A stretch of 64,000 nucleotides of DNA from Candidatus Hermodarchaeota archaeon (GTDB lineage Archaea > Asgardarchaeota > Thorarchaeia > Thorarchaeales > Thorarchaeaceae), in NCBI GenBank assembly GCA_048885865.1, contig JBHLLF010000008.1, positions 38,926 to 102,925 of the forward strand, given 5' to 3'. The notes under the pieces are model-generated. The model saw only the letters and a list, made by a program, of their open reading frames with translations. It was not told the DNA's origin and ran no database searches. The position numbers were made by a program, and so were the translations under genes. Positions 1-49,844 of the stretch are shown here, one piece after another; positions within the stretch are counted from its first letter, which is position 1, and every line of letters begins with the position of its first letter.

Positions 1-3000
1 GGCCCTCCAATTGACGAACCGTTCAGGAATTCTCCTGTTAGGAATGTTCCTGAAAGCGACCAAGTTACTGTGCAGTTTGACAATCCAGTGTCGTTCAAAG
101 TAGGTGCAAGTACAAACACGCCAATTCGAATAGTGTCGGTCCAATCGAAGACCTGGCTGCTATAGGTTTCAGTCAACGGATCCAGATTCACCTTGGTCAG
201 AATCTGCTTGATATTGACTTCTGCAGAGGAGGTCATAGTGAGATAGTTGGTCTTCTCAGCGCTCACAACAATAGAATACGTCTTCGTACTGGCCGCTACT
301 GTTGCTATGAGCCCTGTGTAATATCCATTCATTCCTGGAACTGGTGCTAAGGACACACCATTCATATCAAAGATCCATTTTGCCGATACCGAGGCTCCCG
401 TTAGAGGCACATCATTGTATGCGTCACGGACAAATACGGTGATGTTTATTGGTTCACCTTTGTAGAGCACCTGACTATTCAGACCATCCACTATTGTAAG
501 TTCAAGATTCAATCTCAATATATTCACGGTGACCTGCCCTGAAACCGTGTCATAATTATCCAGCCTGGCGGTTATCGACACCAGATAGGTAGTAGCAAGA
601 GGAAGGTTTCCAGTATCAACGGTAAACGAGTAATTACCAGGTGTTCCCTCCGTAAGGCTTCCACTCAATATGCCAAATTGATAGTTAACAGCGGCTCCAG
701 GAATGAGAGTGCCACTCCGGGTGTCATTGAAGAGAGCCCATATCGAAACGCTTTCTCCCCAATGGACATCTGGGACAGTCTGCGGCAATATAATCCCTGT
801 TGGAATGTTAAGTACTTTTATTGAGATGGAAATTTCAGGAATGAAGTAGTCAGCCTTTTGAGCACTCACTACAAGAGTGTAGAGGTCTGCACCCAAAGTA
901 GTTGTGTCCAGCGTAATGTTATACATTCCGCTGCCAATATAGACGTAGCTTGAAGTTTCAGGCCATATTAGATTCAGCATAGCGTCATGTATTGGTGCAG
1001 ACGATGCATCAATATCAACAAGTTCAACAATCGCATAGGTCTGCTCACCAAAGTAAGCATCGGGCGATTCTATCTTTGTCAATTCACCTTGCCTTGCCCG
1101 AATCTGTATTGGTACCTGAACCTCAGCAAATTGATAATTACTCAAGTTAATTTGTATCACAAGTGCATTTGTACCGGTGGAGCCTGCGTCAGTGCAGTTC
1201 ACAGTTAGTTCGTAAATCCCTGGAGCGATTACAGTTATGCACCAAATGGATGGCACAGAGCCATCGGACTTGTAGGTGACACTGATATCGCTCTCAGCTC
1301 CTGCTATAGCCAGCAAATGATCTGTATCAGTAAATGTAAGGACCACGCTAACATTATCTCTGATTGGTACCGTTGTTGGGCTTGGTTCGTAATAGTACAA
1401 TTGCGATTGAATCAATCTGACCGAACCAATGAGAAATATCTCAGAGGCATTCCGATAATAGGGCGCTATGGACTGATTCCATTGCAAAAGTAAGGAGAAT
1501 GTGTATAGCCCAACTCCACCAAGCTTGTTTGTATCTACTATGATTGTATATTCGCCAAACTCAGGGCCAAAACCCCTAACAATCCAGAAGTCCGTGTTCT
1601 CGACAAGCCCGCTCGGATTTAGACAATCAAACACGATTATGGCATCACCTATTCCCAATCCATTGTCCTGATCTTGATAGGAGAAAGTCAGTGTCATATT
1701 GTCGCCAATTGGGATTGTAGGAGCATTGCCAAGGCTAATGGATCCAACTCTATTGGTGACTGTGACTCCCACTGATGCTGCATCATCCGAATAATAGGGA
1801 GGATCAGTGGAAGACCAATCGACAAAGACTGTGACATTCCAATTGGTTACTAGGTATGGGCTCAAAATTGCTGAATTGATTCCGATTCTATATCCATTGC
1901 CAGCAAAAGACATGGCGAAGTCGCTGCTTTGAAGAAGGCTGCCTCCGCTGTAAATTGATACCATGTTCTTTGTTAATGTGATGAAATCATCTGTGCTATC
2001 GTCATTATAGCTAAATGTGAATGTGATATTATCAAGGAACCTGACTTGTGTAGGTGAGCTGATAATTCTGACACTTGCGGGCCGTACAACTACCGATACA
2101 GTCAATGAAATCGTCGTATCGGTGTAATAAGGAGCTCCTGAGGGCCACTCAGCACTTACTACAAGGCTTTTTGTGGTGCCCGGAATTCCTATTGCAGTTG
2201 CATTTATCGAGATCTGATAGATGCCATCTCCACTTGTCTGTAGAATGTATTCAGTGCCCTCCATCAGATTAATTGCGTCAATGGAGAGGACAATGTTTGC
2301 ACCTCCAATCGCAGTAGATGATTCCAAGTCGCGATATGCAACAGTGAAATTGACAAAGTCAAGATACGGAGTAGGAAGTGGTGACTCAGTGACATCTAGA
2401 TATGTTGTACGCTCCCTAAGTCTGAACGACACGAAAGTTTCTGCAGCAAGGTAGAATGGTGATGCATCTGCATATGTGAATCGAATCCAAAGCACATAGT
2501 CTGTATCAACATCAAGGATTTGATTGAACGTCTGCACAGTGACCAGGTAATCTTGAGAAACTCCGCGCCAATTTGATGTGAAGATCCAAGAGCTTCCATT
2601 TAGAATCTCTATGCTTGTCAGCAAGGAGATATTGCTGATTGGTGAAAGAGAGAATAAATCACTGTAATGCAATACTAATGGGATTGACGAATTGTAGGAA
2701 ACAATTCCAGCTGATTCAGCTGCTAGCGTAGTGATTCTATATCGAACATTGAGCGTCCGTGAACCTGTGACATCAGGATAGTAGAATTGGGTCGTGGTGA
2801 TTTGAATTTCAAGACTATAAGAATCCGGTCTTGAGAAGTAGCTTGTATTCAGCTCAATGGTGTATTTCCCGCTTCCAAGAGGAATATAGCTATAGAAAGA
2901 AACGGGAATTGGCTGTGAGTCGTTGTATAGTGTTATTGTTCCATCATCAATTGGGCTGGGAATTGCTCCTGCGACATCCAGATAGGTCACAGTGAAAGTA

Positions 3001-6000
3001 GCCATTTCTCCATATGAAGTGGGACTGGGTGTTGCGAAATCGAATGACGTTTCTCTACTAGCTACTGTGATAAAGATGGTCCTTGCCGTAATATTAGCGT
3101 AGAATGGTGAGCCTGTCCAAGTAATGCTGATGGTGAACTGTTTGCTTCCAAGAGACGCTCCTAGAACACTAGTGTTGAAGGACACATGGAACTCCCTAGT
3201 TGTGGAATTATAGCTTATTGAATAGTCTGGCAGGTTGACTACAACAGTCATCCTTGCATCATTAGGAATTGTGACAGGAATTACATTTGACACATCATCA
3301 TACGAGAATGAGAAGGTGGCATTAATGCCATAGGATGTGCTGTCAGGCGGAGTCACAGATACTACAGTGTTCCTCGGAATCACTCGCACTGAAATTGTAT
3401 CAGTTCGGTTGTCATAGAATGGAGAAGCAGATGCAGACCAGTTCACTTGCACAACCATGGTAAATACGCCTGGCTTTGCGAATATGGTTGTGTTGAACTC
3501 CAAGGTGTAATGCCCAGGCATGCCCTCTAAGATGGATACCAATGATGTATCAATGGATTCACCCACGAACTCAATGAAGATGAATACATCACCAGTTGCG
3601 TTTGATATCCCTACCCCGCTATAGAGCTCACCATAGAAATACGTATAGCTCATATTCTCCAAATATGGAGTTGGACCGGGAGAGTCCTCGAGACTCAGTT
3701 CCGATTCTTCACCAATGATATTGACTGATGTTCTAATCATTCCATTGTAGAACTGCTGAGTAGGTCCAGTCCAATTGACATAGACTGTGAAATTGTATAA
3801 TCCACTCTCTCCAAGTACTAAAGCTGGGAATCTAATGATATAGTAGCCATTACCCGAAGCTGTATCATTTTCAAGGGTCGAGTCGATCCATCCAGCTACT
3901 CCATAGACAGAAACATTGACGTATTGCGAAGCAACTCCAACATCGTTGTCCAAGTCACCATAGTACAGAGAAACATTGACCATGCCAACATAGGTCGTGG
4001 GCTCAACTGCACTGCCGAGTCTAACCTCTGTGTAGTGAGTCCTGAGAGTCAAGCTCAAATTGAAGTAGCCAAATTGGTAGTTTGAACCCTTTGATACGTT
4101 GAATAAAATGAAATAGCTACCCAACGAATCTGTCTGGAGGCTTGGCAGCTCCACTCTGTATTGCGATCCTGTCCAAATCACAGTTAATGCATGGGTCCAG
4201 TTGTGGTCTATTGATGCACCAAGAATAGGCTCATCGTGAATTATGTCCCAGTAGTCCACGTATAAGACTGCTGTATCACCTAATGGAAGATCTATCGACG
4301 AATCTGAGGAACGAGCGTAGGCATAAGCTATCTGGACTATCACTTCGAATGTTAGTGTCTTCGCTTTATAGCTTAGAGCATCTGCTGTGATATTGACTTC
4401 GTGTGTTCCGAGATTCCATCCTTGCACAATTACCAATACTTCGTAGACACCATTGCCAAGATGTTGCCATGTGATTGATGCGCCTTCTGCTGTTATCGAA
4501 CCTGTGGTGATATTGACATTATTGTCTATGTCTACATAATTCAGGGTGATAGTGACATTTGTGTCGTAGGTTGTTGTCACAGTGGGATAATCATCAGACG
4601 ACAAATAAGTCAAGATTGGCCTATAGGTGAATGTTATCACTGGTGTCTGTGAATCGATATAGTTCTCTGCAGGCAAAAAGTCGACATACACTACGATGGT
4701 ATATTCCCCTTCTAGGAAGTTGCTTTGGTCAATGATAAGCTGGTATCGTCCTTCGCCGAGGAATGCAAAGCTCTCAAATGTGTATTGCCAGCCAGTTTCA
4801 TTCTTTGCAGTGAAGTATGCTTGAGTCAGTCCATTAATGGGATCTCCATCAATTGAAGACCCTGGTTCGCTGATATTCAAATGAGCAAACATGACGAAGT
4901 CATCACCGTTCGGGAATGGCTCAAGATGTTCCCAGCTCACATAGACCTCAAGCTTTCTGATTTCCAGGTCTACGGATATTGTTGCATCTGAATAGTATCG
5001 AGGTGCGGTAGTTGCATAGACAGTGATGTTGATTGTATATACCCCTACTGACCAAGCACTTGTATCCAGCCAGAAGCCATATGGGAAGAATGCTTGCGGT
5101 CCACTTCCCCAATCTAGAGTCACCTGGCTCAGATTGCCAACGCCTATTCCAACTGAACCTCCATCGACATCTAGGAATGAGATGTCGAAATGGGTGCTCG
5201 TTCCCACTGGCGTGGACGGACTATAATCTGCACTTACTGAAGTGCTATGTACTTTCACTATCACCGTAACACTTGCTGTTGCATCCTCATAGTTCGCCTC
5301 CGAGAGAGTCACATCAAATACATAGGTGCCTGGGAGATACGAACTTGTGTCAATTGTGAGAGCATAATCCCCTCCACCAATATCTGCTGTTTGAAGAGCA
5401 ACAGGGGGATTGATGCTAGCTGTACCTCCATCTATTCCAATTCCTGAGTGGTCTATATCATACCAGTGTATCGTGACAGTGGCTTGTTCTCCCCATGGGA
5501 CTTCAACTGGATCAGAGCTAAGTGCATACGCATCTGTAGAAACTTGTCTATAGTCGAATTGCACGTCGATTGAGCTACTCAACAGATATGAATCCGATGG
5601 GGTTGCTGTGAATCTAAATGCATGTGTGCCAGTTGACAGTGCCGAGCTGTCAATAGTCAAGAGATATGTACCGTTGCCATAATCTACGGGCGCGCCTATG
5701 ATGGTCCCATTGCTAGCGAATCCCGCATTTGCAAGCGGCTGGCTGTTGAATGAGTCTCTTAAGGTGATTTTTACTGTGAAGTCATCACCATATGGAGCAG
5801 CTGATGGCGGTTCATATGTGAGATATGTCTGATGCGATAAATCCAGAAAGAAGACATTGAATGCATCACCATAGAACTGGTGAGAAGACGTAAGTTCAAT
5901 ACGCCAACGTTGAGCAGTACCCAGGTCTGTCGTATTTAGGACTCTTCCGTAGCTACCATCGCCGTAATCATTGAGTTGAATCTGAGTAGGAGCCCCACTG

Positions 6001-9000
6001 ACAGTCCAGTTCATGGTCATTGTGGCACCGCTGATTGGTAGAGAGGTTAGTGTATCGGAAAGCTCGAATTCAACATACAAGCCTTCACCGATGAGCTTGG
6101 CTGAGATACCATCCGATACTGCATCACCAGGCGCCGTTAGGCTCATAGAAGCTCCTCGTTTTACAATAAAGTTCCTACTGAATATCCCCACACTTTGATC
6201 AACATTGGCTCCATCATCGTAATACCGAGCAGTGGCTTGCCAGACTCCTGCTTGGGCTGAAGAATCAAGTGTGATTGCCGCGGATTCTGAATATCCTGGA
6301 GACTGCTCTATACTAATTGAGAAGAAGCTGCTTGGATCATTTTGGTTCTTAAATTGTGTTTCAATCCATCCAGCAGGACGTGCAACATCTGAGATACGAA
6401 CCTCGTCGATTTGTCCCTCATATTCGGCACTCCAGACAACATCCTTTGGCTGATCTCCATGACCAATCCAGAAGCCTTGCTCAGCTGTGGAGGGTAATAT
6501 TGCATCAGTCTTCTGGAGAACATTCGGATCCTGCACTCCGTCAACATAGATTCTCATCAAGCTGCCATCGTACGTGGCCACGATGTGATGCCAAGATCCT
6601 CCCATAACATCATTCGCTCCCACTAACTGGTGGGTCTCTCCTTGCACATTGAAGACAGGCTTGAGAGTCGATACGCCTCCCTCATTAATGAAGAGGCTAT
6701 AACCATTATACCACCCCTTGTGATTCATTATTCCATAGATGTGGGTGTTAGGTGTGATATCATGTTGGACCCACGCCTCCAGAGTTAGTTGATACCCGTC
6801 AATATTCCAAAGCGGGCTATCACCGCAGTCAATAAGGTCATAGTTTCCATCAAGATTATTGAAATCTTGGCCAAAGCCAATCTTGCCGGAAACTTGGGTT
6901 GGCACATAGGTGGCTTGGCCTTCTCCACCCTGGCCATGATGTTTGTATTGACTGCTGTCTGTATATTCATCAAGTGCTCCAGTTCCACTCTCTGCAAGGT
7001 GCCAGACGCCTAGATAGCCAGAATCCCATACCGGTCCTGAATCGTAGACTATTGGTGCTATGGGATTGCCGTAATACATGCTAATTGCGGTATCACTTGA
7101 ACCAGATAGCAATGGGACCTTAACCCATGCTGCGAGATGTGCATGTGTCGAGTTGAAAGTCTGGTCGAAGAGTTCAATCTCATGTGCAAGTGTTTCTTCT
7201 CCAATTGCGAAGGCTATATCTCTACCATCTGCACGAACATCTGTGCGTAGGTCAGCGTCATATATGTCAACAAGTACCGGGAAGTTGACAAGATCTGTAG
7301 CGACATTTTCATGGCTGATAGTAAGATATTTCCTGTGGGAGTAGGGCAGAGCGAATTTTTGGCCTTGAAATGTTGCTGCGCCTGAATACCAGGTTGAGCC
7401 GTATGGATCAGTCAAATCAAGTGATATGCCTGAGCTCATGGTTCCAGAACTCCATATCCGGAACTGGATTTCTTCTCCTATCAAGAAAGTGCCTGATGGA
7501 GTATAAGGTCCTCCTGACAGACCCATTTGTGTGTCAAAAACATGATTCCTGTCTTGGAATCGAATCCGCCACATACCATATTCATCAATCGCTGTTGAAG
7601 CAACGATGAGTTTCCCGTCGAAGCATGTCCAGTCAGTTGCGAATGATTTCTCTACCCCTGAAGGACTCATGACAGAAAATGGATACCATTCGCCTTCTGG
7701 ATAAGACAGCTCAAATGAAATTGATTCTATCTCAGGAGGAGGAGAAACCAGTACATTTGCTGTCCAGACGGCCAAGCTGCCATTTACTATTGAAAACGAT
7801 GTTCCTGGAATATAGTCATCTGTGTAGCTAAACCCTGAAGTGTGGGTTCCAAGCGAAGAACTTAATCCAATTGTAATGGCAACATCCGAGCTCGTGCTAA
7901 ATTTGTATCCTGATGCGTCCAGCAAGCTTGGTTCGCTTGGCTCTTCTGGAATGGCAATTTGCTCTTCCGCTCCAACAGAGTAGAAGCTAGCCGGGTCATT
8001 CTGATTTGCGTATTCTGTTGCAATCCACTCAGGAGAAAGGACGGCACCGAGAATTCTAAACTCTGAAATCGCACCAGGACCCCACATATTTCCGGCGCTG
8101 AAATCGGACAGAATTGCTAGCTGGTCCCATGGCAGATGTGGATTTGCATTATCTGCGCTATTGTCTGATGCATCCAATGAGCCATTTATGTAGTGATATG
8201 CCATTACAGCAGCCGTCGACCTTACAAATGAGAATTGAAACCATGAGTCTGCAGCCCAGGAATTCTTAGTCCCAGTACAACTATCATCATTATCTGATGT
8301 AACTTCTATGTGTGTTACAACGATTCCACTACTCGCGAATCTCATTAACGGATAATCATTTGTGAGACTGTTGCCCCGGAAAAAGTGCATCTCACTTCCT
8401 GGCGGAAACGTATTGTCGAACTTGAACCATGACTGAAATGTAGTGTCAAGCAACGGACCTGAGATACTGCTAACAGCAAACCTATCATTAATCCCGTCAA
8501 CTGAAATCGCTGTTCCTAATCTACCATCATAAACCCGTGAATCAGAATCAAATCCCAGTGCAGTCAAGTGATACCCATTGGCTGTGCTATCCAAGATGCT
8601 AGTGGATGATGGGTCCTGATTAAAGTGCCAAACTGCAACATAGTTGCTATTCCATACCTCAGATGGCCTCTCTTGATTGTTTATGCTTGGATTTCCATAG
8701 TACATGGTAATTGTAGTGTCCACTGAGGAGGATAGGTCTATCTTAACCCAAGCGACAAGATGTGCATGTGTCGAGTTGTAGGTCTGGTCGAACAGCTCAA
8801 TTTCATGTGGTAGAGATGAGGTCCCAATTTTGAAGATGATGTCGTCTCCGTCCGGCTGAACATCACTTCTGAGATCAGAGTCGAAGATGTCAATGAGCAA
8901 CGGAAAGTCTGTCAGGTCTGAACCAACCTTGGTGTGGTCTATTGTAATGTTCTTCATGTAATTATACTCAGGTGCCACACCCAAGAATTCAGCAGCGCTA

Positions 9001-17750: not shown

Positions 17751-17799
17751 GTTTACAACTCCCACTAAGCAATGCAGGGATGGGACCAACAGAACTGAC

Positions 17800-17897: not shown

Positions 17898-18521
17898 CTA
17901 GAGGTATTCGATTCTCCCCATGTCAGTCAAGGCGTTAAGTGCTGGGGGGTTGAGAATCTCTATATTTGGCTCCCTCCAAGATACGAGTTTTGTTTTCTCT
18001 GGAACGGAAAGCTTGTGCAATGACGCACATGAAAAAAGAGCACTTAGGTCAAGTCGCATGATGTCATTTCCAAGTAGGTTCAGCTCCTCAAGTCTTGGAC
18101 ACTTAGAAAGCGGGGTGAGATCTAATGCTTTCATTTGATTATCCTGTAGATACAGAGTTGTGAGGTTCTGACATTGAGCCAGTGGTTCCAAGTCCAATCT
18201 GAACAGTGCATTGTTGCTGAGGTCCAAATGCTTCATATCGCAATACTTCAGTGAATCAATGTCAATCACTCGTAAATGATTTGAATTGAGTCTAAGGCTG
18301 TGCAGAGATTTGCAGAATGCCAACGCCACCAAATCCAGGGTCATTAGGCTATTATTGGCTAGATTCAATTCCTCCAAACCGGTCATATTGTCCAAGGGGC
18401 CAAGGTCGATTGCCATAATTGACTCGTTTGAGAAGTCCAAGGATAAACTGTCCGGCACCACTGGTATCTTCCTCGATGTTCCATCTGCCAATGTCACCTT
18501 AAAGTGTATCAAGACCTTCAC
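17898..18521 (-). CDS. Cytosolic leucine-rich repeat protein (about six 24-aa LRRs)
   Basis: Repeats of LxxLxLxxNxLxxLDLxPLxxCxx, e.g. LTTLYLQDNQMKALDLTPLSKCPR; no signal peptide or TM segment. Confidence 0.92.
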   Translation of the reverse strand: MKVLIHFKVTLADGTSRKIPVVPDSLSLDFSNESIMAIDLGPLDNMTGLEELNLANNSLMTLDLVALAFCKSLHSLRLNSNHLRVIDIDSLKYCDMKHLDLSNNALFRLDLEPLAQCQNLTTLYLQDNQMKALDLTPLSKCPRLEELNLLGNDIMRLDLSALFSCASLHKLSVPEKTKLVSWREPNIEILNPPALNALTDMGRIEYL

Positions 18522-18639
18522 TCACTCTACGATTCATCCAATCTTAATCCTGGGTGAATAATCGCCTATTCATTTCAATATATGGCGCTTCTCCAGATTG
18601 AGTTTGGCTAGTCAGAATTTCCCATTTTGGCACATATAG

Positions 18640-18705
18640 AGATAAGCGAAGAATTAATATGATATAATAGCATAAAATTTAATGTATTATTATATGACAT
18701 AAGGT
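18640..18705. promoter_or_regulatory. AT-rich divergent promoter region between the LRR and pseudoGTPase genes
   Basis: gaattaatatgatataatagcataaaatttaatgtattattatatg between head-to-head genes. Confidence 0.4.
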
Positions 18706-18710
18706 ATTGT

Positions 18711-41000: not shown

Positions 41001-44000
41001 TATCCAAGCAATCAAGCGGGCGTGTGTGCCATTGAAATCTTGGTCAAACAGCTCGATTTCGTGGTCCAAGACAAGGTCGCCAATAGCGAATGCAATGTCG
41101 GCACCATCAGGTCTTACATCTGTGACGAGGTCAGTATCATATAGATCAATGAGAACAGGGAAGTTCTCAAGGCTTGATGCAACTTTATTGTGATCAATAA
41201 CAATGGATTTTCTATGTGAGAATGGAAGAGAGAATGGCAATCCTTGATACGCGGGTTCCGTTGAATGCCAGATAGCTCCAGATGGATCCAGCAAATCAAT
41301 AGAAGTAATTGACCCAAACATGGAAGGAGCTAGGCTTCGAAAACGAATTGAATCTCCTACTGCGAATGTTCCGGTGGAAGAGAAAATCCCTCCTGAAAGA
41401 CCCATATCAAGATTTATGATTTGGTTTCTATCCTGGAACTCTAATTTCCAGATGCCATGCATATTTGCGGCACGGGGAAAGACTGTGAGTCCTTGTCCCG
41501 ATCTTATCCAATCCACATATTCCGTTTTCTGGGTGCCGAGTGGACTTGTAACTGCAATCGGTTTCCATTCCGCTGTAGGATAATTGATGCTGAATCCCAG
41601 ATAATCCACACCAATCGGTGCCGCCAGCTCTATTTTCGCAGTCCAAAGCGGAGGAGTTCCATTAGCGACTGAATAGCTTATTCCAGGCGAAAGATCATTT
41701 GTAAGACTTTGACTAGCGCTGCTAATGTTGAGCTCCATTGTCGCAGAAAGAGACACAGCTGAATTTGAATTCGTTGTGAATCCAACACACACCTCATTTG
41801 TGACAGTTCCTGACTCCTCCCCAACAGAATAGAATGATGAGGGATCCTTCTGATTCAGATACTCAGTGTATATCCAATTGGGATCAAGAGGATGCATTGC
41901 TATTCTAACTTCATCAATAAAGCCATCCAGCTCGTATCCTGGCCTTGAGAGGCTAAATGGTTGTGTTGTACTAAGACTCTGAAAGCTTGTCAATGATGAG
42001 CCAGATCCCGTTATAGTTCCATCTCGGAATATGAGGACTCTGTTTGTTTCTCTATTGACGACAGCAACGAGATAGACCCATTCTCCGAATGTGATGGGCG
42101 ATGAGGTAGTAGTTCTCACTATGCTCCCATCACTGATCCACGAGCTTATAGAACTCGCATCGTTTGATGTTTCTATGTCATATCCTGCGTTTATGGAGGA
42201 AGACCCACCTTTGTAAAAGGGTATCTGATATGTTCCAGTATTGGAATCTATTCTCACCCAGATGCTGTATGAGAAGCTAGATGTTCCAAAATCAAGGTGG
42301 CCATCAGATGGGTCACCAAAGTTGACAGTTCCATCGATTCCATCAAAAGAGTACGCTTGACCTATATAGCCACTAGTCCCTTGCAATATTCCACCACTAG
42401 GAGTTCCTTGTGTCCCATGCAATGTTGAATCCAGTGCATTCCCAGAATCTTCCGATAGGTGCCATACGCCTGCATAACGATTAGACCACACACCAGCTGG
42501 ATTCTCTTGACTGCCGACGTCGGGATTACCATAAAGCATTGTAATTTCAGTGTCTAATGAAGATGAGAGAAACGGTATACGTACCCATGCAACCAAGTGT
42601 GCATGAGTTGGGCTGTAAGTCTGATCGAATATTTCTATCTCATGATCCAAAACAAGATCCCCAATTCGGAATGAGATGTCATCACCGTCAGGTTGCACCT
42701 TTGCACGCAAATCCTCGTCAAAAAGCTCGACTAGAAGTGGAAAATCGTTAACGTCTGCTAGGACCTTGCTACTATCGACAGTGATGGTCTTCTTGTTAGC
42801 AAATCCCTGAGTTTGAAATAGGACTTCACTTCCTATCGAATAGAAATCCTGCGGATTGTTCTGATTGGCATATTCAGCAGAAATCCAAGCGGCAGAACGA
42901 TCAGTAGTGGAAACCCGAACCTCGTCTATTATGCCCAGAAACTCGTATCCAGTATCGCCGTTGCCATGAGTTCCAATCTCTAAATCATTGCCGAGGTCGT
43001 ATATGATTGAATTGGTATCTCCATTACTGTCTACTTGTTGGCCATCGATATATAGAAACATACCAGTTGGTCTTTGAACAGCAACAAGATGATGAAAACC
43101 ATCTCCAGTCACATTCACCCCCATAGGAGCCATATTCACCCATGAGCCGGCAATGCGTTTGAAGAAGAGTACTCTACCATTACTCCATACTCTAAGCGCA
43201 TAGCTATCCCCTCTGGTCACTACTTCTCCTCCAACCGACTCATCAACTTTCACCCATGCAGAGATAGTTATCTGGCTTGCCTGGTCGGTGTTGACTGGAT
43301 TGGACACAGTGACATGGTCATTGTCTCCTCCAAAGCTAAAAGCTCCATCAATCTGCCCCGCGGCATCAGTAGACCCGCCGCCCCCATCTTGGAAGTTCAA
43401 TGGAGTTCCGTCATTGCCATTGGCTGTCGAGTCCTTGGCCCCTCCCGGTGTACCGTCGCTTGGCGCCCTATTCAAGTGCCACACGCCGGCATAGTTGTTG
43501 CTCCATACGTCGCTGGGATTCTCAGAGTTATCGTAGGTTGGATTGCCGTAGAGCATGGACAAGGTTGTGTCAGCTGTTGATGAAACATCGGTCTTAATCC
43601 AAGCTACTAGATGAGCATGAGTGGAGTTATATGATTGATTAAAAAGCTCAATCTCGTGTGGAAGAACCACGCCATCTTTTGTGAACACAATGTCGTCACC
43701 ATCAGCTTGGGCATCAAATCTGAGGTCTGTATCATATGTATCGACTAATAGCGGGAAGTCTGTCAAGTCGGCATCGACTTTCGTGTGATCTATTACGATC
43801 TCTTTGTGGTAGAGAAAACCTCCAACTGTTTCGAATAGAGGTATTTCACTTCCAATAGAGAAGAAACTGGCAGTGCTATATTGATTATTGAATTCAGCTG
43901 TAATCCAGTCAGCAGAACGAGCTATATCTGAAATGCGGATCTCATCAATCGTTCCCTTGAACCAATCTGCAGCCCCCCAGATATAATCCAAGACTCCAAT

Positions 44001-47000
44001 ACTTGCCTTATCAGTGGTCAATGTTCCCGCATCTTGCGTACTGTTTCCATCGGAAATGCCATCGATGTACAGCTCACGGTTTGCCTTCGACCGCTGAACA
44101 AGAGTAACGAAGTGCCACTGGCTATCCTCTACGTTGGTCGAGCCAATCACTTGCGCGTAATAGCCAGTTTCTGTTTCTGAATAGAATCGCACCTCTGAAT
44201 TAGTGTCATCTACATATAGGAAGAGATAGTCTGATACACCTGTGTCTCCCTCACTGTATATCGTCCGCTGGTCTGCTGTATCGGCACCTATTCTTATCCA
44301 AGCTGAGATTGTCCAAGCCGCACCGTTTCCGATGACCACACCAGGAAGACTCACCCCGTCATTAGACCCATCGAAATCCAGAGAACCATCAATCTGCCCT
44401 GCTATTTGGTCGCCTGAACTCATACCTCCTGAAGAAGTGCCATCATTATCATTGGAGGTCGAATCATAAATCGTTCCAGTTGGATCATCATTCATATGCC
44501 AGACTGCGCCGTATGAATTGCTCCACACACTGATAGGATTCTCAAGGTTCACAGCCGAAGGATTTCCATAATACATTGAAACTACAGTATCCATGGAAGA
44601 CAAGAGGTCAGTTTTAACCCAAGCGACAAGATGGGCATGAGTAGAATTGTAGTTTGGGTCGAAGAGCTCAATCTCATGGGGTAGAATCCAGCTCCCCTTT
44701 AGAAACAAGATATCATCACCATCAAACTGGACATCAGTCTTCAAGTCTGCATCATAGATATCAATCAGCAATGGGAAGTCTTCCAAGTCCGAATTTACCT
44801 TTGTGTGGTCAATAACTATGTCTTTCCTGAAATTGAATTGAATTGCCTGTGTCAATTCAGGACCAAGGGATATGGAAGGTTCAGGGCTCAGAAATGGCCT
44901 AAGAAATGCATCATCTGCATAAATCGTATTAGGCTCCGTCTGCGGGGACGCCCAATAGAACACTGTGCAGAATCTATCAATACCCTCGGTCCCGAGGTTT
45001 CTGCCTGTTTCCTCAATCTCGAGATTTCCATCCATCCACAATCTCGCCTCGCCATTGGTGTCAGAGATTCGAGCCTGCATCTCTAGCATATGCCAAGAAC
45101 CTGTGGAAATAGTACTTGTAGCCATGTAGCCATAGGCTTCCCCGGCGATTGCGTTCCACATATACAGCGTCATGTCATCCTTTATTGTAACGCTAATCTG
45201 GTTCTGCCACCCAGTCGAAGTGTCAACATACTGCATTATGGTTACATGATCGGTGGTTGAGAATCCTGCTGGTAGGTAGAAGTGAACTCGAGCAAGTAGA
45301 TTCATCGAGTCACTGAAATCCCACCAGACCATCCCTTGAGCGGCTGCCTGGTTATCTACATCTGCTCTGACTGCATAGGTGCCGGAGTGGACTGGAATGA
45401 GCGGTGTATTTAGAACCAGCAATGTATCACCAATATCAGTATACGAACCATTCCAGCCATCAAGATTTCCACTCTCAAACCCATCATAGAAGGAGAACAC
45501 GCGTGAGCTATCACTTGGAGGAGAGCTAGACAAAGGATTACCATAGTAAAGGTAGTAGCCCGAATCTGAAGAAGACGCTGGAATTGATGTTTGTGTCTTG
45601 AACCATATCTTGGTAGAATCACTATTCCAAGTCGAATCAGTGTCCAGCATCCTATCGAGTTCGATCCATTGGGATCCATCCCAATACACTACACGAATGT
45701 CGTCCCCATTTGCCAAGGATTTTCCTTCGCTCACTAGCGCCGCATGATCAAATGTCAGATGGACTGAATATCCTGCAGGGATATTAGATGCATCGGCAGA
45801 AACTGTGGCTGCTTTTCGATAACTCCAATCTGAATCGAACCATGCTATTTGGCTCTCTTGACCTATGCTGTAGAATGCCAATGGGCTGATTTGGTTTCTG
45901 TAGCTTGTCAAGACCCATTCAGAAGTCCGAGCGTTTTTAGATACCCTCGCTTCATCAATTAGACCATCCCATTCTTGGTCAAGACCTACCGAACCTGGAT
46001 TATTGCCTATATGAAGGACTGAGTCTCCAACCTGCATTGAACCAGTATAGGCAGCAGTGTTTTGTAGGATACCATCAACAAAAAGATACAGATTCTGCTG
46101 GGTGGCATCAGCAACACCCACCAGATGATGCCAACTCCCATCATTAATTAGACTATACGCTGTACTCACTAGCTGCGTGTCATCCACGAAGAATGCCAGG
46201 GTACTAGCATCCAATTTCCCGAGCCAGTAGTTTCTATTGCCTACCTCATTCCATTTTGCAAGGATAGCATCTGAGGAGATGTCTGTATTATTTGTACGCA
46301 CCCAGGCTTCAACAGTTACACTTCCTGGTATTGCTAGGCTGTTGCCATGGGGAACCTCAACTCGACGTAGAGTCGCACCGTAGAACTCTGCTGACATACC
46401 AATTTTCCCTATGACATAGCCCGGCTCATTGCCTGGAGGCTCACCCGTCCCATCATTGCTGAATGATGTGCTATCGAAGTTGGTGCCGGCGGGATCCTCA
46501 TCTAGGTGCCATACTCCAACAAAGTCGTCGTCCCACACTCCTTCTACCGTTTCCTGATTTCCAACATACCTGTTTCCGTAAAGCATCACAATGTCTGTGT
46601 TCCTGGCTGATGAAAGAAATGGAACACGTACCCATGCTACCAGGTGAGCACGAGTCCCATCCCCTGTACGATCAAATAGTACTATCTCATGATCTAGAGT
46701 TTCATGACCGATCATGAACCCGATGTCGTCCCCATCTGGTTGAACAACAGTATGCAAGTCCGCATCCCAAATATCAACCAAGACCGGGAAATCATATAGG
46801 TCGCCGGCCACCTTCATATGGTCAATGCTTATTGTCTTGCTCTTTTCAAAGCTATATACAATGTCCTCAGATTCCGGAGCTAGATAGTCCACGAATAGCC
46901 TAGAAAGATCAGCTTGAGGATAATTGCTTGATCCTTTGACGTTGTTCCAGGACAAGTCATTTGTCGAGTGTGCATATTCAAGCATGATACAGACATAATT

Positions 47001-48515
47001 GCCGCTCTGCCAATCAGTTCTAGAAACAACCTTTTGCAGAATTGGAGCGATGTTAGGAGAGGCATATCTGGTGCCTGCAGTCCAGTCACTAGGAGTCCAT
47101 ATAATATCAGTATCAACCCAGTTGTAGCGGTCAGTGAGTTCGGGAAGACCAGTGGTGAACGCAGTGACTGTATTCTCGTTTGCAACAAGTATCCGCATTC
47201 TGCCATCAAAAGTGTCTGTCAGATATTGAGCGCCAGTTTCAGCTTCCACTTCCAAATACGCTGAAGTAATCGCACTGCCTTGTGGGACATCCAAAGGAAA
47301 CTGAAGCCCCACTTGGTATGCATAGGCTGTACTCCAGTCAGGAAATGCTGGGGCATTCGCTCCCATATTCAAAACACCATTGTCGCTAGGACCGTTGAGA
47401 TCTATTCCTGAACTCACATTACTATAGCAGTCTCTATTGGCACCATCTGGAACATAGGGGGAAATTGAACCTGCAGTTGAACCCTTTACTGAAACTCCGT
47501 TGGCTTTCAGGTTAATCTGTTCGGGGAAGGGTCTGACATTGAGTCTTAGTTCAATCTCATCTATATACGCCACATGGCTGCCTCCGACTCCGGGTTGGCC
47601 GCTTATGTCAGTCCCAAGTCCTATATCGAACAGCACTGAATTAGGCACAGTTAGTGTCTGAAGATAGGAATTCGGCACAGTGACTTGAGCTTCAATCCAT
47701 GTGTCTACAGGGTCCCCCGTGTCAAACACCTCAAGCTTGGTCACAAAATCCCCAAATCTCGCAAAGAGATGGACGCCGTTGTCCATATCCGATAGGCTAC
47801 GCACATAGTAGAGGAAGTTGATTTCAGCTGAGTATAATTCTCTCCATGGAGCTAATACCTGTTGCCTTAAGTAGACTTCATTTGTTGGCTCGAGAGGCGT
47901 TGTGCCTGCGTAGTTGCCAGCGAACTCCCACCCCATTGTATCACCATATCCTGCCCCAAGACTGCCGTATAGCTCGAAAGTACCCTGAAGAGGATGCTGG
48001 GAACCTGTCGCAGGATCTGACTTCTCCAGTGTCCATCCATCAGGCACATCGAAGTTATCACCGTTGAACTGAGAATCAGTACCTGTGAAAAGCCATCTTT
48101 CATTGTGATATGTATCAAGCTTCGGATTAATCAGTGCGTTATCGACCCACATGGACAGGTCATCTAGATTTGTAGTCAGATGATCACTAGTCCAACTTTC
48201 TGGAATGTTCATCGTTAGGTATCCGGGCATAGAGGAATCAAAGGAAGCTGTGCCATATCCAGAATAGAGACCATTCAAATCAATGGGTAATGATTCACCT
48301 GTGCCCTCAAAGGATCCTGTGCCTTCAGCTAAATAGCTAGAGTCATTTCCTGCTGAGGACTCTCGCAATCCTCTTAATGGCGCTGGAAATGTCGGATGCT
48401 CAATTGATGGTGCGAGGAAAAAGAATACAATCAATGCAACAGCGGCAATTCTCTTCATCCCAGCCAAACCCTTTACGCCAACACCTATCTGGATACAATG
48501 TCGAACATTCGACAA
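32037..48515 (-). CDS. Giant-2: ~5.5k-aa single-pass surface protein; DNRLRE-like domain, 5+1 DUF2341/LamG-type cassettes, Ig-like stalk, TM helix, ~227-aa tail; likely start ATG 48458
   Basis: MKRIAAVALIVFFFLA signal peptide; GLQFPLDVPQGSAITSAYLEV; cassette starts at about 46850, 45843, 44840, 43820, 42805 and 41230; TM LPTIAIVILGAILW followed by SRVFRLPEMLKK; stop overlaps the giant-3 start (ATGA). Confidence 0.95.
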   Translation of the reverse strand: MSNVRHCIQIGVGVKGLAGMKRIAAVALIVFFFLAPSIEHPTFPAPLRGLRESSAGNDSSYLAEGTGSFEGTGESLPIDLNGLYSGYGTASFDSSMPGYLTMNIPESWTSDHLTTNLDDLSMWVDNALINPKLDTYHNERWLFTGTDSQFNGDNFDVPDGWTLEKSDPATGSQHPLQGTFELYGSLGAGYGDTMGWEFAGNYAGTTPLEPTNEVYLRQQVLAPWRELYSAEINFLYYVRSLSDMDNGVHLFARFGDFVTKLEVFDTGDPVDTWIEAQVTVPNSYLQTLTVPNSVLFDIGLGTDISGQPGVGGSHVAYIDEIELRLNVRPFPEQINLKANGVSVKGSTAGSISPYVPDGANRDCYSNVSSGIDLNGPSDNGVLNMGANAPAFPDWSTAYAYQVGLQFPLDVPQGSAITSAYLEVEAETGAQYLTDTFDGRMRILVANENTVTAFTTGLPELTDRYNWVDTDIIWTPSDWTAGTRYASPNIAPILQKVVSRTDWQSGNYVCIMLEYAHSTNDLSWNNVKGSSNYPQADLSRLFVDYLAPESEDIVYSFEKSKTISIDHMKVAGDLYDFPVLVDIWDADLHTVVQPDGDDIGFMIGHETLDHEIVLFDRTGDGTRAHLVAWVRVPFLSSARNTDIVMLYGNRYVGNQETVEGVWDDDFVGVWHLDEDPAGTNFDSTSFSNDGTGEPPGNEPGYVIGKIGMSAEFYGATLRRVEVPHGNSLAIPGSVTVEAWVRTNNTDISSDAILAKWNEVGNRNYWLGKLDASTLAFFVDDTQLVSTAYSLINDGSWHHLVGVADATQQNLYLFVDGILQNTAAYTGSMQVGDSVLHIGNNPGSVGLDQEWDGLIDEARVSKNARTSEWVLTSYRNQISPLAFYSIGQESQIAWFDSDWSYRKAATVSADASNIPAGYSVHLTFDHAALVSEGKSLANGDDIRVVYWDGSQWIELDRMLDTDSTWNSDSTKIWFKTQTSIPASSSDSGYYLYYGNPLSSSPPSDSSRVFSFYDGFESGNLDGWNGSYTDIGDTLLVLNTPLIPVHSGTYAVRADVDNQAAAQGMVWWDFSDSMNLLARVHFYLPAGFSTTDHVTIMQYVDTSTGWQNQISVTIKDDMTLYMWNAIAGEAYGYMATSTISTGSWHMLEMQARISDTNGEARLWMDGNLEIEETGRNLGTEGIDRFCTVFYWASPQTEPNTIYADDAFLRPFLSPEPSISLGPELTQAIQFNFRKDIVIDHTKVNSDLEDFPLLIDIYDADLKTDVQFDGDDILFLKGSWILPHEIELFDPNYNSTHAHLVAWVKTDLLSSMDTVVSMYYGNPSAVNLENPISVWSNSYGAVWHMNDDPTGTIYDSTSNDNDGTSSGGMSSGDQIAGQIDGSLDFDGSNDGVSLPGVVIGNGAAWTISAWIRIGADTADQRTIYSEGDTGVSDYLFLYVDDTNSEVRFYSETETGYYAQVIGSTNVEDSQWHFVTLVQRSKANRELYIDGISDGNSTQDAGTLTTDKASIGVLDYIWGAADWFKGTIDEIRISDIARSADWITAEFNNQYSTASFFSIGSEIPLFETVGGFLYHKEIVIDHTKVDADLTDFPLLVDTYDTDLRFDAQADGDDIVFTKDGVVLPHEIELFNQSYNSTHAHLVAWIKTDVSSTADTTLSMLYGNPTYDNSENPSDVWSNNYAGVWHLNRAPSDGTPGGAKDSTANGNDGTPLNFQDGGGGSTDAAGQIDGAFSFGGDNDHVTVSNPVNTDQASQITISAWVKVDESVGGEVVTRGDSYALRVWSNGRVLFFKRIAGSWVNMAPMGVNVTGDGFHHLVAVQRPTGMFLYIDGQQVDSNGDTNSIIYDLGNDLEIGTHGNGDTGYEFLGIIDEVRVSTTDRSAAWISAEYANQNNPQDFYSIGSEVLFQTQGFANKKTITVDSSKVLADVNDFPLLVELFDEDLRAKVQPDGDDISFRIGDLVLDHEIEIFDQTYSPTHAHLVAWVRIPFLSSSLDTEITMLYGNPDVGSQENPAGVWSNRYAGVWHLSEDSGNALDSTLHGTQGTPSGGILQGTSGYIGQAYSFDGIDGTVNFGDPSDGHLDFGTSSFSYSIWVRIDSNTGTYQIPFYKGGSSSINAGYDIETSNDASSISSWISDGSIVRTTTSSPITFGEWVYLVAVVNRETNRVLIFRDGTITGSGSSLTSFQSLSTTQPFSLSRPGYELDGFIDEVRIAMHPLDPNWIYTEYLNQKDPSSFYSVGEESGTVTNEVCVGFTTNSNSAVSLSATMELNISSASQSLTNDLSPGISYSVANGTPPLWTAKIELAAPIGVDYLGFSINYPTAEWKPIAVTSPLGTQKTEYVDWIRSGQGLTVFPRAANMHGIWKLEFQDRNQIINLDMGLSGGIFSSTGTFAVGDSIRFRSLAPSMFGSITSIDLLDPSGAIWHSTEPAYQGLPFSLPFSHRKSIVIDHNKVASSLENFPVLIDLYDTDLVTDVRPDGADIAFAIGDLVLDHEIELFDQDFNGTHARLIAWIEVPHLSANADTTISMYYGNPYAPNRENPAGVWDSNYAGVWHLGEIGTGLANEYADSSIYANHGQGGLGNSSYVPTQTPGAIGFGQDFVDHFIDCGNDTSLDITGSEITLQLWMQYPATHPNMGPLNHKGWYNGYRLVMPQNSQNINFNLHGSDYSLGTSQSFAPNEWHHVVAVYNGTHMRFYIDGNPDPASLEKNDDILSALPEPFRIGHGDHPEAKAWSFPWLGQIDEVRVSSVARSSDWIWTEHQNQADPQSFVTIGLEESIGNYTTSDINLDASASEGLWTARIRYRSSTGLPGGSVGTLSRNFIVTHSAAIGLTAPSDALSDHIASREAGDEVYLEVELIDTVTSNIVTGATVTINWTVLGTPTLVQLNDFGNGRYGKTLNTSDLGEARRWRIEFSSYHQYYANATEYVDIDLSHRSYLTSMPPNPIPYGEDFIVKVNLRDAFDNSLISGATITSNGTFSLSPVDYGNGTYLISINSSGYNIGTHVFRITAEPIDPLVMSCFLDVTFTYRTIKTTAITTGSNPAEVPYGQTVNTTLQWYDNDNGGIGILGGTITSTASLQFIDLGDGSYGVTVDTSDYALGTHVIHLTVSKQNYQSATASITLNIIPHRTSLGLEINSTTPVGSLTYLSVSYIDLDGGSKLIPSGNLSLILVEWVGGSDTFFSYGFWLDTSGWAVGIHEINVTLQAISSPRFYDDALITSQVEVRKLNVFLTWEHLDPIPNGDDFEMFLHVNVTEPGTAVDGIPINGIASGYFSAENDTGSPYAISVTFLADGRYRLVIGGGAFFEGDYKITIFLDFLPAEIYEDTQTPMIIFTYRATRASLSSQEYPQVATTYNTNVTVSLHYVDLDRSLNITTGSITAQGASIVWQHVGDGYYDVIIVVFGWNQGGHSVNLTADAVGYEAKTLAFEVIVQIAYAYARPTVTSIDLPLGDTYTFYVDYWDITNDEPIIGASLSHNWTHSLAVFWTGSEYRVDFASFDSDPLGSYLILFNFSKGQNYQFGYFNVSINLRTHYTEFRLGSIVEPTSYAGVVNVSLYYGDLDNDVGIWSSNIDVLVRNQTGVISFLSLDNDTSLGSGYYILRISASVFGSTGLYNFTVYLNWTGPGPKFFNGTTSASVNIIGEESKLTLLDSPGPTAYLENMSYLYVYSELYSGDGISNYTTQDVHVYIVFVGESIDDSLIDIGEIDPVGNPGQYTIQFNSTVFGKPGLFTMIVYFNWSAGVAPYYPNKTSVVQVRVTARNTLLSVNPPDSTPYGVNATLSFTFDDATDVILMPIAKQPQMSVVLSLADYSLWYNDTTMTFHISFNTSVLGASIGSKSFTISVSWVGTPFYANVTNRVVLITVLYRETVIEYPTPPPTPFKSNLTLTVNYLDVTENPSVPIDGCTITLEDSIGTIPAVYYSVLALGGGVYEVEFNTTYFTTPGIYDLTVVIVSSNFYIPEASATRSLQIQYRLTTLTANPIGLIPFNDSLNAILQYQDLLTTESIGNGSQPIGIEILNGSSWEFDSQWRSSSQDYLVVIETYNQMLEIGKPYVLLIRMSYPDVAPFYRWSDVYLSFELRYRSSSLQLTDFPMPTAYLDLVNFTILYQDLDLISGIENGEIDIYYGITELVEDIEYFVNAIPGGEYYISIDSTSLAGLGSHIVQVRANWLLGAPYHRNSSLSVGLSIVERAARTDIVVPPNQAAYLDNLTFSFRYSDVSKDQSISITKSLVTIFSGGVQLQQDDFSFVEILGDYYVEINSTILGTGLVSNWNLTLVVNWSPLVAPFYTSDQASMSITTTNRIGLVTLDQPPTVPIGDNMSLIATFVDEGNGLAISGALVDFDCLNPSNLVENVDFWVLRNTQGEGSYEIVVDSNALGSSGTFTFRLKLLWDSGTSPYYRNTTTLYLTGSVRLVQALLTNDIPNPSIVPLYYNCSVVLNFTDLDHSVQITGAEAVANVRYKSTGLAPSIWNIYVVSPGVYQLTVNCSDAAASGTDALIVEIDLYPYQIAELQIPFQIRLRDGELIVRSQVNNWKGENAIVVLELVDRDAFDMPLSGASLALSWADSSTYVDLGNGLYEITLWSSALNAGAYTLQVAGSLSDYFISDISVNIEVRPIPAELTPTSNVPDVYWGENVTISAIYNDTLHDLPISLASLTYEFGTLAGSLSENTPGNYSFSLDTGRLAWATTYVVIITASYQNYQTATAQVTVNVLKLPTEMTLMGGLQSQDLYRGQPVNVTVFVNDTHNGVPLSGAFIEAYWSDTPGAPFYIPAVPGEPGYYSGSMNTGAKDIGTYTLNLVLKKDNYMTAFGIISVKIVQITSTLWLDATTQTYVNRAFNWTDVVRLGVYVLVPSLNPGDPYSTGLSDCLVSWSVSGTSINGLFENGTLLGGPGYFYYDFDTEDLRASTYTIRISAVPTNKTFSEASNTTTLTVLRLKTWVGSPETATHIWGWSGYVSFTYWDLIRNVGVNDAYAYIEWDGGEDQASYLGNGSYSVFVNTSLVRPGTHPIILNLWKENYESGTGVFNLVVLSVPTEIEVYADEVNMQEDDPTNLIVPHGDLLNVICLYNDTTYLRGITGATYLEAVLTHPSMISDKESLPIAELSGGNYTIGFDSSRWFVVDEPYHLIVKIGLENRTTATISVYITIVIVPTTLIYDGLSSISLSFGQTHEIRVRYIDIWPTHGNAGIENGIVNATSFNTRYVIIRSNESDANGGGWYVITISSQFEEGSSVIRIILSKQNHQSSEFSITIAVEPSSTDLLIQSAILYGLPTIAIVILGAILWSRVFRLPEMLKKLNKMIKALKHGVVPKKPDGIKDRQEIIAALFNETCAGVGVTKQPDAMPRFSVRIDVPEIEELLIQLTILTDMTPGELEDFREEVSKMKLSEQVAFTKEVITQQAIKQAKTEGKSLERFLEDLATQARAVIEGRPLIRDEGIGKKKPAKPIDDDGSTEADADRLSESELAKLRKRLIGAGLPEQEIESIMKQVANLPRSLVDELVRTVLGDGGAEP
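41820..46850 (-). repeat. Five tandem ~1-kb DUF2341+lectin-fold cassettes in giant-2 (the second is a different subtype)
   Basis: Recurrent K.I.[IV]D..KV..D..DFP.L...GDDI...HEI..F...AHLVAW...YGN...VWH at about 1010-bp spacing. Confidence 0.87.
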
Positions 48516-48654
48516 GATACCAAGCAGAAAGCCCTCGAAGAAATGAAAAATAAACTATTTTCGTCTATTCGAATCTATTATAGGTCAATATAGCCATTCA
48601 TTTGGGTGAATCCTGACAAACGCAAATCAGCTTTTAGCCAGGCTGAATGCGTTA

Positions 48655-49227
48655 TTACAGCTTTTGCCATTCGTTGATGAAGGTCTTAGCGACTTCAATC
48701 CATTTCTCGACCTTCTCTAGAGTGAATTCATATCCTTTTGGGATTTCAACGGTACCATCAGCGACAGCTTGAGTCACCTCAGCTAGAAGTATGTCAGGCT
48801 CGGCATCAGCCAAGTCCCTGTAGTTTCTAATGCCCACATTTACTATAGCTTCAGAATCTTCTTCTGAAATTCCTTCCAACCAGCAGAACCGACTCATGGC
48901 TTGCCATTTTGATGCCATATCTTCAGAAACACCACAAATTCTAGCAACTTGAATCGTGCCTGCTGCTAGAAGGTCCTCTACGGTAGCGATGCCGGCCCTC
49001 CTCAATTTGGCACCAAAGGCTGAACCAATTCCTTCGACCGTTTCAATCGGGAGTTCCTGTAACTTCGCTGCTGGTTCCTCAACCTTGGGTACATACTCTT
49101 CAGACGGGATTTCCTTGTTCGAGGTTCTGGCAGAAGACGAAGCATCACTTTTAGCAGCACCTTTTGATGAGCAGAAACCTCCTATGATCAGGGGAGTCAG
49201 CAACAATAATGCAAGAAGAGAGTCCAT
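48655..49227 (-). CDS. Membrane-anchored helix-hairpin-helix protein (DUF4332-like)
   Basis: N-terminal hydrophobic stretch, Ser/Glu-rich linker, two HhH units (IETVEGIGSAFGAKLRRAGIATVEDLL; LEGISEEDSEAIVNVGIRNYRDLA) and terminal VEKWIEVAK typical of DUF4332. Confidence 0.8.
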   Translation of the reverse strand: MDSLLALLLLTPLIIGGFCSSKGAAKSDASSSARTSNKEIPSEEYVPKVEEPAAKLQELPIETVEGIGSAFGAKLRRAGIATVEDLLAAGTIQVARICGVSEDMASKWQAMSRFCWLEGISEEDSEAIVNVGIRNYRDLADAEPDILLAEVTQAVADGTVEIPKGYEFTLEKVEKWIEVAKTFINEWQKL

Positions 49228-49349
49228 TTTCTATACCACTCAATCTTTTGACTAGATTCGCTAGACTACGGGGCAAAATGAACCTTTGCTAGGTTATTTG
49301 AAATTCAAATTAGAATGGCGCTGATGGTTTATCCAGAATCATATTATTA

Positions 49350-49844
49350 GTGAAAGCACTGACACGGAAATTGCAGGTGTTACATGAAGTGCGACTTCCG
49401 GGGACCAATATCGAGGTGCTAGTTAGTTCCAGTATCATAGAGATAAGAGATGAAGATTTCCTACAGAGTATAGAGTATAGTGGCAAGAAGTATGAGGCTG
49501 TCCTCGATGAGATACAACGCATAATGCACAAGCGGGGATGGGAAATTACCAGGCGGGTCATCAAATACGTGTTGGATAGACTTGGCTTGCCAGAGGTTGA
49601 GTATTTTCCATCGGGTGAGCTGAGTGCCGATGAAGGCGGGAATTTGAGCGAGATGATTGACAGCATAAAGGAACTCACTGGTGTGAAGGCTGAAGTATCT
49701 GAGGAGCCCCCAAGCGTGTCTGCCGATGATCTGAACTTCAATTTTCATTCGGAGAACATTCCGAAGGAGGCTCCTGAGCGGAATGGCAAGTCCAAAGAGT
49801 CAGATTTCGATTGGGAAGAAGCGCCTCCCGTTGGCTCATCCTAG
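49350..49844 (+). CDS. Hypothetical protein, stand-alone paralog of the pseudoGTPase N-terminal region; likely start GTG 49389
   Basis: VRLPGT...IEYSGKKYEAVLDEIQR...IKYVLDRLGLPEVEYFPS aligns with MKVPGT...IKYAGRTFMEVLEELQR...LKFILKRIGLPDVEVFPS. Confidence 0.88.
   Translation: MKALTRKLQVLHEVRLPGTNIEVLVSSSIIEIRDEDFLQSIEYSGKKYEAVLDEIQRIMHKRGWEITRRVIKYVLDRLGLPEVEYFPSGELSADEGGNLSEMIDSIKELTGVKAEVSEEPPSVSADDLNFNFHSENIPKEAPERNGKSKESDFDWEEAPPVGSS

Follow-up and report, generated by a model that had tools for sequence, protein, structure and literature searches.

A Thorarchaeal locus of giant surface proteins with conserved cytoplasmic tails, adjoining a possible adaptor pair of a leucine-rich repeat protein and an X-domain pseudoGTPase

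We analyzed a 64,000-nucleotide stretch of the Thorarchaeota genome G000 (contig C8, positions 38926-102925; hereafter the window, whose own numbering is used unless a contig is named), in which genes for very large surface proteins, the giants, lie next to genes for a leucine-rich repeat (LRR) protein and for proteins that share an N-terminal domain, here called X. Two paralogous units are present in the window, each consisting of a giant pair, a small gene upstream of it and an X-domain gene on the opposite strand. An earlier reading of the DNA letters alone (the original prediction) had assigned the stretch to an Asgard archaeon and had recognized the same layout twice; both claims were borne out, and every gene was found where it had been placed. 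The giants are type-I membrane proteins, and the genes of a pair overlap translationally. The two units follow a common plan in which a long giant is followed by a giant of ~3990 amino acids, and the X gene opposes the small gene across a gap of 120-210 bases.

In Unit A, giant-1 lies on the minus strand at 3..17789 (probable start ATG at 17750) and is cut by the left end of the window. In the whole contig this gene encodes 6554 amino acids (C8:37050-56714), with the C-terminus, transmembrane (TM) helix and tail lying beyond the window, and it is followed, with a 4-base overlap, by a fourth giant of 3987 amino acids with four tail repeats (C8:25090-37053, to the left of window position 1). Since the whole contig shows this second giant after giant-1, Unit A is also a giant pair with the same plan as Unit B; of the composition originally proposed for Unit A, giant-1, the LRR gene and the X::GTPase gene stood, while the single giant became one member of a pair. 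The small gene of Unit A, located upstream of giant-1 on the same strand (17898..18521, minus), encodes a 207-amino acid LRR protein (Pfam LRR_8, 3.6e-22) in which no hydrophobic segment was found. It is separated by a divergent, AT-rich intergenic region (18522..18728), which by its sequence is presumed to contain a shared promoter region, from a plus-strand open reading frame of 439 amino acids (18711..20030) that encodes the X::pseudoGTPase; translation probably begins at the ATG at 18729, the position at which its orthologs start.

In Unit B, giant-3 (5492 amino acids, 32037..48515, minus strand) is the first gene of the pair, and its stop overlaps by 4 bases the start of the second gene, giant-2 (3986 amino acids, 20080..32040, minus strand). 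Upstream of giant-3, the small gene encodes a 190-amino acid DUF4332/helix-hairpin-helix (HhH) protein (48655..49227, minus strand) with Pfam matches above the gathering score to DUF4332 (6.3e-13) and HHH_5 (1.3e-10). Its N-terminal hydrophobic segment ends in GGFCSS and might act as a signal or as a lipoprotein-type anchor, and the HhH domains may therefore be extracellular or located at the membrane. Across a gap at 49228-49349, the plus-strand gene X-alone (164 amino acids, 49350..49844) encodes an X domain and two linker motifs and lacks a GTPase domain.

All giants have an N-terminal signal and exactly one more hydrophobic segment near the C-terminus. N-glycosylation sequons occur at 1.2-2.5 per 100 amino acids ahead of this C-terminal segment and at nearly zero after it, and a sequon-rich ectodomain followed by an almost sequon-free tail fits a type-I, glycosylated surface protein. 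In giant-1, ~10 DUF2341+LamG modules precede a long stalk rich in beta structure. Giant-2 has a signal peptide, a single DUF2341+LamG module (28834-29700), a stalk and a TM helix (21295-21357), and giant-3 has five LamG modules, at least three DUF2341 modules, one polysaccharide-lyase-like module and a TM helix at 32730-32792. Above the Pfam gathering score, giant-3 matched Laminin_G_3 (3.4e-98, in five stretches) and DUF2341 (1.4e-32), and giant-2 matched Laminin_G_3 (2.9e-13); Pfam at permissive thresholds gave no match for the N-terminal 520-amino acid domain or the stalk of the giants, and no integrin or cadherin Pfam domain was found in the giants or their tails. The ConA-like clan to which LamG belongs also holds non-lectin members, and the description of the giants as carbohydrate-binding lectins with receptor-style signaling is drawn by analogy.

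The giants had been predicted to be mutual paralogs, and they indeed aligned collinearly: giant-3 was 44% identical to giant-1 over ~5000 amino acids, giant-2 was 39% identical to giant-3 over 3300 amino acids, and giant-2 was 49% identical to the giant outside the window (C8:25090-37053) over 2900 amino acids. In a tree of giant N-termini, the N-terminal domain of giant-1 was nearest (72%) to a giant of genus g5 (G377) and not to the ortholog of the same genus in G014, which hints at recombination or transfer among giants.

The region that follows the TM helix, 181-408 amino acids long, aligns across the nine giants of G000 and across genera, and 24 columns were invariant among 17 tails from many genera. 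The tail of giant-3 is 222 amino acids long (32040-32705) and has one copy of a terminal repeat, and that of giant-2 is 400 amino acids long (20083-21282) and has four 45-amino acid helical repeats. An AlphaFold2 model of the giant-3 tail had a predicted local distance difference test score (pLDDT) of 80, rising above 90 in a four-helix domain (residues 66-137). In the order modeled, a basic juxtamembrane helix and a second helix precede this domain, and a spacer that is disordered separates it from a terminal module of three helices (~90); the terminal module occurs in 1 to 4 copies among tails. The cross-genus alignment and this model bear out the proposal that the giants have conserved, folded cytoplasmic tails, and we rejected an anchor-only S-layer or surface protein as an identity for the giants since such a conserved, confidently modeled helical tail of 181-408 amino acids lies past the TM helix.

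Within the family, a profile of the tail had 1-10 matches per genome in 84 of 85 genomes, and it also matched weakly, at full length, proteins of 1900-4500 amino acids in the Asgard family f12. Large surface proteins of f12 (L090, L095, L096 and L100, in genomes G141 and G136) and of families f31 and f3 (L092 and L093) have a related juxtamembrane motif, IPWxVRRMRKMxKxIDxGKxP, after the TM helix; there the motif is followed by an acidic helical tail with a repeat of its own, and X is absent. A cytoplasmic domain on giant surface proteins may thus be an Asgard-wide theme. No solved relative of the tail was identified: a Foldseek search gave no match, a VIA-align fold search found nothing convincing (best Z 5.5, for an adenovirus capsid protein, an uncharacterised NMR homodimer, a FAS/FADD death-domain chain and others), and the tails had no accepted Pfam match at permissive thresholds. 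A SAP domain on one tail repeat was not accepted (E 0.0045, 17 bits versus a cut-off of 23.9).

The X domain forms the N-terminal ~100 amino acids of both plus-strand proteins (~18729-19025 in the X::pseudoGTPase). The two copies in the window are 34% identical over 99 amino acids (E 1e-19), so the X genes are mutual paralogs, as had been proposed. A model of the domain (pLDDT 84) contains four strands and then helices. Pfam at permissive thresholds gave no match for X, Foldseek against the PDB gave none at E <= 0.001, and matches in the ESM Atlas had a TM-score of at most 0.5. In a wide VIA search the best match (Z 7.3) was a de novo design and the remainder had Z <= 5.9, and no fold was assigned; protein-atlas look-ups for the tail and for X yielded no usable match. 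A Roadblock or longin identity for X was dropped because those folds arrange their strands and helices in a different order and none of them was among the fold matches. When the giant-3 tail was co-folded with X-alone, the interface score ipSAE was 0.00 in both runs, a result that counts neither for nor against binding.

Searched against 1.84 billion representative proteins, the X profile matched only 47 clusters, nearly all of them at the N-terminus of proteins of 400-560 amino acids, and 9 of 10 sampled clusters carried Ras or Roc. Among 379 Asgard genomes, X was found in 72 of the 79 family members and in the only genome of the order from outside the family, and the 298 remaining genomes had essentially none (two matches at E ~1e-3). 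By these searches X is a Thorarchaeia-only domain that is almost always fused to a Ras-like domain. The present alignments and models define two new domain families, namely X, confined to Thorarchaeia, and the giant tail, found in Thorarchaeia with distant forms in other Asgard families.

The Ras-like domain of the X::pseudoGTPase scored 49.7 bits against Pfam PF00071 (cut-off 21.6), with only profile positions 36-157 matched. Pfam recognized Ras, Roc and Arf in this G domain, and structure searches matched Rab and Rac at E ~1e-9. The G1 P-loop pattern GxxxxGK[ST] is replaced by GEAQVGVKS (19464-19490), with valine at the lysine position, and the G3 DxxG and catalytic glutamine are missing from WTFEGSQ (19587-19607), which aligns to WDTAGQE of Rab9. 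The G4 motif NKxD is present as NKTD (19761-19775), and GNKTD is kept in all orthologs. Giant-linked orthologs of genera g1, g5 and g28 have the P-loop GVGV[KN]S, and the loss of G3 is also kept in orthologs. Because the degeneracy is shared by orthologs of these three genera, it is a selected state rather than decay. The degenerate GTPase of the original prediction was confirmed, and pseudoGTPase is a fair label, with nucleotide binding through NKxD possible. Pfam detected no COR domain in the X::GTPase, which stops ~20 amino acids past the G domain.

Between the X and G domains lies an acidic linker of 130 amino acids with three conserved motifs (19218-19244, 19263-19292 and 19350-19370), and X-alone has linker motifs at 49737-49763 and 49803-49820. 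Across relatives, X proteins fell into three classes. Class a is the X::pseudoGTPase type of the window, and class b is the X-alone type, which is confined to a part of genus g1. Class c is an X::GTPase of ~450 amino acids, mostly with an intact GxxxxGK, that adjoins a gene for adenine phosphoribosyltransferase (APRT) and is present as one copy in most genomes. SIWDxVPxS occurs in class a only and YxFHxENxP and KFxWD[DE] in classes a and b, whereas class c has none of these motifs; the motifs are kept in all X proteins linked to an LRR gene, whether or not giants are present. In a tree of X domains, class c split from all other X domains (100/100), and class b formed a long branch within the class-a clade.

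The class-c gene of G000 is split over contig ends (C26:35349-35540 and C48:4-1488) and is easily missed in gene counts. In genus g5 (L077/G365, L080/G377, L074/G379 and L079/G376), tandem X::pseudoGTPases follow the LRR gene, and the tree identified the second as a g5-specific duplicate and not the ancestor of X-alone. At L047:9818-11644 (the bin27 chromosome, CP070761.1), the X::GTPase reading frame crosses a stretch of N into an unrelated membrane-protein frame, and this 608-amino acid "fusion" is an assembly or masking artefact.

The loci of relatives were annotated (16+5+20) by BLAST against the parts of the window. Since many of them break off at contig ends right at the giants, the linkage counts are lower bounds. 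An LRR ortholog (35-68% identical) adjoined the class-a X::GTPase in divergent orientation in 23 of 25 loci with a readable upstream side, the two exceptions being an X-only gene of 213 amino acids in G011 and, in G020, a second paralog. On the other side of the LRR gene, a giant was present in 16 of 19 readable loci; these 16 come from genera g1, g5, g25 and g28, among them the SMTZ1-45 genome and the closed "bin27" chromosome. The giants and the LRR gene share a strand, with the LRR gene ~110-150 bases upstream, and the genes on the far side of X vary between genera. Overall, the giant/LRR/X::GTPase triad persists in at least five Thorarchaeal genera amid changing outer flanks. Class b was divergent from the DUF4332/HhH gene in 6 of 6 relatives, with giants after the HhH gene in G000, G002 and G015. 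The LRR gene with the X::GTPase gene is the tightest association at these loci, and giants are usually, though not always, found on the LRR side.

Trees also bear on the origin of Unit B. In a tree of the N-terminal 600 amino acids of the giants, the LRR-type giants of g1 and g5 had the clade of HhH-type giant-3 as their sister group (support 99), and DUF2334-type giants stood apart from the LRR-type ones. X-alone lies within the clade of LRR-linked X domains, and these two placements agree with duplication of a unit. The trees are best read as Unit A having been duplicated within part of g1 to give Unit B, in which the LRR gene was swapped for DUF4332/HhH, the X gene lost its GTPase half and evolved fast, and the giants were later lost in G014 and G001; the X::GTPases of these two genomes are nearer to that of G000 than are those of G008 and G013, which keep giants. 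Other DUF4332/HhH paralogs of G000 lie on contigs C83 and C32, not near giants or X genes, and to the right of 49844 the window contains unrelated housekeeping genes (an HD domain, gamma-glutamyltranspeptidase, fumarase and others).

Full-text literature searches found no description of a module of giants, LRR protein and X::pseudoGTPase. Eukaryotic adhesion receptors work with cytoplasmic adaptors, as in integrin/talin/Rap1 and cadherin/catenin. The giants resemble such receptors in being single-pass proteins with a large modular ectodomain that includes LamG-type modules and with a conserved cytoplasmic tail, but no homologous domain was detected in the giant tail or X, and the likeness is one of analogy only. 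Roco proteins, such as LRRK2 and prokaryotic Roco, have the order LRR-Roc-COR. As in Roco proteins, an LRR module is associated here with a Roc/Ras-like G domain, which matches Pfam Roc; in contrast with them, the LRR and G domains are encoded by separate divergent genes without COR, the P-loop lysine and DxxG are lost, and an unrelated N-terminal X domain is added. The Thorarchaeota Rab-like GTPase of PDB 7EZB, from the same superfamily and phylum, matches the G domain at E 2.8e-7, but 7EZB is a G domain alone of ~180 amino acids, whereas the protein described here adds the X domain and the 130-amino acid acidic, motif-bearing linker and has degenerate G1 and G3.

A 2024 survey, "The neglected giants" (PMC11573180), reports in its passages on these proteins that Laminin_G_3 is the dominant domain of archaeal proteins of >5000 amino acids, calls their function not understood, and counts three such huge Laminin_G_3 proteins in Thorarchaeota. 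The giants in those passages are like ours in exceeding 5000 amino acids and in having Laminin_G_3 near the N-terminus; the same passages do not mention a cytoplasmic tail, paired genes or LRR/GTPase neighbors, which are features of the present locus. An Asgard operon of LAMTOR1-like, Rab-like GTPase and DENN genes, conserved in most Asgard lineages (bioRxiv 10.1101/2020.10.19.343400), is a precedent for a conserved Asgard neighborhood around a small GTPase. That operon has other partners and no membrane giants, whereas the present cluster is kept within Thorarchaeia only and is not among the GTPase neighborhoods in that study.

The reading that we favor, to which we give a probability of roughly 0.45, is that the locus is a surface-protein cluster specific to a Thorarchaeal lineage, together with a probable cytosolic adaptor pair formed by the LRR protein and the pseudoGTPase. 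The giants would make up an outer coat with an adhesive or protective role, and the LRR protein and X::pseudoGTPase would be co-regulated from their shared gap and act as a pair, comparable to a Roco protein split in two genes and lacking COR and a working switch; the Trp/Phe-acidic linker motifs would probably serve as docking sites, and the pair would probably place, traffic or anchor the adjacent giants via their tails. The parts of this proposal are not equally strong. We consider it probable that the LRR protein and X::GTPase are a functional pair, we propose only tentatively that this pair serves the giants, and we regard direct binding of X to the tails as unlikely.

Nearly as likely as the cluster model is that the giants and the LRR/X::GTPase genes are unrelated neighbors, such that fast-evolving coat or adhesin giants insert and duplicate at a variable island, and LRR/X::GTPase is a separate cytosolic module that might serve membrane or cytoskeleton regulation and merely marks the island. 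Several observations weigh against the cluster model and favor this alternative. The three giant-free LRR loci among the 19 readable ones are all from genus g7, which keeps LRR and X::GTPase genes and whose G domain retains the P-loop lysine. In G014 and G001 the X::GTPase, HhH and X-alone genes are contiguous with no giants between them, so that the Unit B giants are missing, and in G011 a single X gene lies between the flanks that in G000 enclose the whole 64-kb block with its four giants. Tail-bearing giants were present in each of the 16 genera, and most of their loci are headed by DUF2334 and contain no X. G000 itself has five more on contigs C2, C47, C69 and C22, in at least four loci without X, none having an X gene nearby where the flanks are readable. 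On C47 the giant's locus has a DUF2334 gene of ~230 amino acids (L050:6375-7064, Pfam 1.2e-12) and no X or LRR gene, and the same arrangement of a ThiI-like gene, a DUF2334 gene and a long tail-bearing giant forms a second conserved giant locus shared by at least seven genera (L101-L107).

The cluster model is further weakened by X itself and by the closeness of the genomes compared. The original prediction had named X homologs mostly unlinked to giants as what would speak against it, and this was half the case, in that ~70 of the ~120 X matches in the family are the APRT-linked paralog with no giant nearby. Among the 16 genomes in which both coordinates were listed, no class-c gene was within 30 kb of a listed tail, and in the complete genome G004 the nearest tail was >130 kb away. 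Distant tail-bearing giants of family f12 exist without X, and linkage among close kin can be inherited synteny. Set against unrelated neighbors are the presence of a giant after the LRR gene in four genera despite differing outer flanks, the constant strand and short spacing of that gene relative to the giants, and trees in which the unit appears to have been duplicated together. The proposed linkage was supported only partly across genomes: it was strongest for LRR with X::GTPase (23/25), usually included the giants (16/19), and did not extend to the giants in g7, G014 and G001 or to the lone X of G011.

Two further explanations concern what X does. The original prediction had cast X as a receptor adaptor that binds the tails, with a Rab-like pseudoGTPase and X passing signals from outside the cell to the inside. 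Both X and the high-scoring tail family span essentially the whole of Thorarchaeia, and a tail repeat number of 1 to 4 is as expected of a docking platform, but the f12 giants manage without X and the majority of tail-bearing giants lie apart from any X gene, and we consider this model improbable. Even more improbable, in our view, is that X proteins are regulators of divergent giant operons, X binding DNA or RNA and the degenerate G domain acting as a sensor. Divergent genes around a shared gap are typical of regulator-target pairs, and X has a small strand-plus-helix fold with weak structural neighbors in AP2 (Z 4.6) and RpoN (Z 4.2); however, these Z-scores are at background level, the commonest X paralog adjoins no giant operon, and the nearly constant fusion of X to a Ras-like domain, by way of a disordered, acidic linker bearing docking-type motifs, is unlike known archaeal transcription factors. 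Extending the cluster model, we also considered an adhesion-receptor system of Thorarchaeia's own, in which the conserved tails of lectin-type giants, with docking repeats in varying number, would recruit the LRR protein and X-pseudoGTPase and so link the surface to the Asgard cytoskeleton or trafficking machinery. Encoded by two genes and lacking a working switch, the two proteins would parallel Roco or Rap-type adaptors; this bolder version is doubtful.

Asgard archaea are the closest known relatives of eukaryotes and carry many Ras-like GTPases, and to our knowledge the partners of almost all of these GTPases are unknown. The locus described here is a conserved, testable neighborhood in which a Ras-like protein that lacks the P-loop lysine and has a new domain at its N-terminus lies beside an LRR protein and usually giants, and these giants, unlike ordinary archaeal coat proteins, bear a sizeable conserved cytoplasmic domain. 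The X and tail domain families stand as new even if the parts do not interact. If they do interact, the locus would be a prokaryotic case of surface proteins wired to a GTPase-derived adaptor, and pseudoGTPase adaptors would also have arisen outside eukaryotes.

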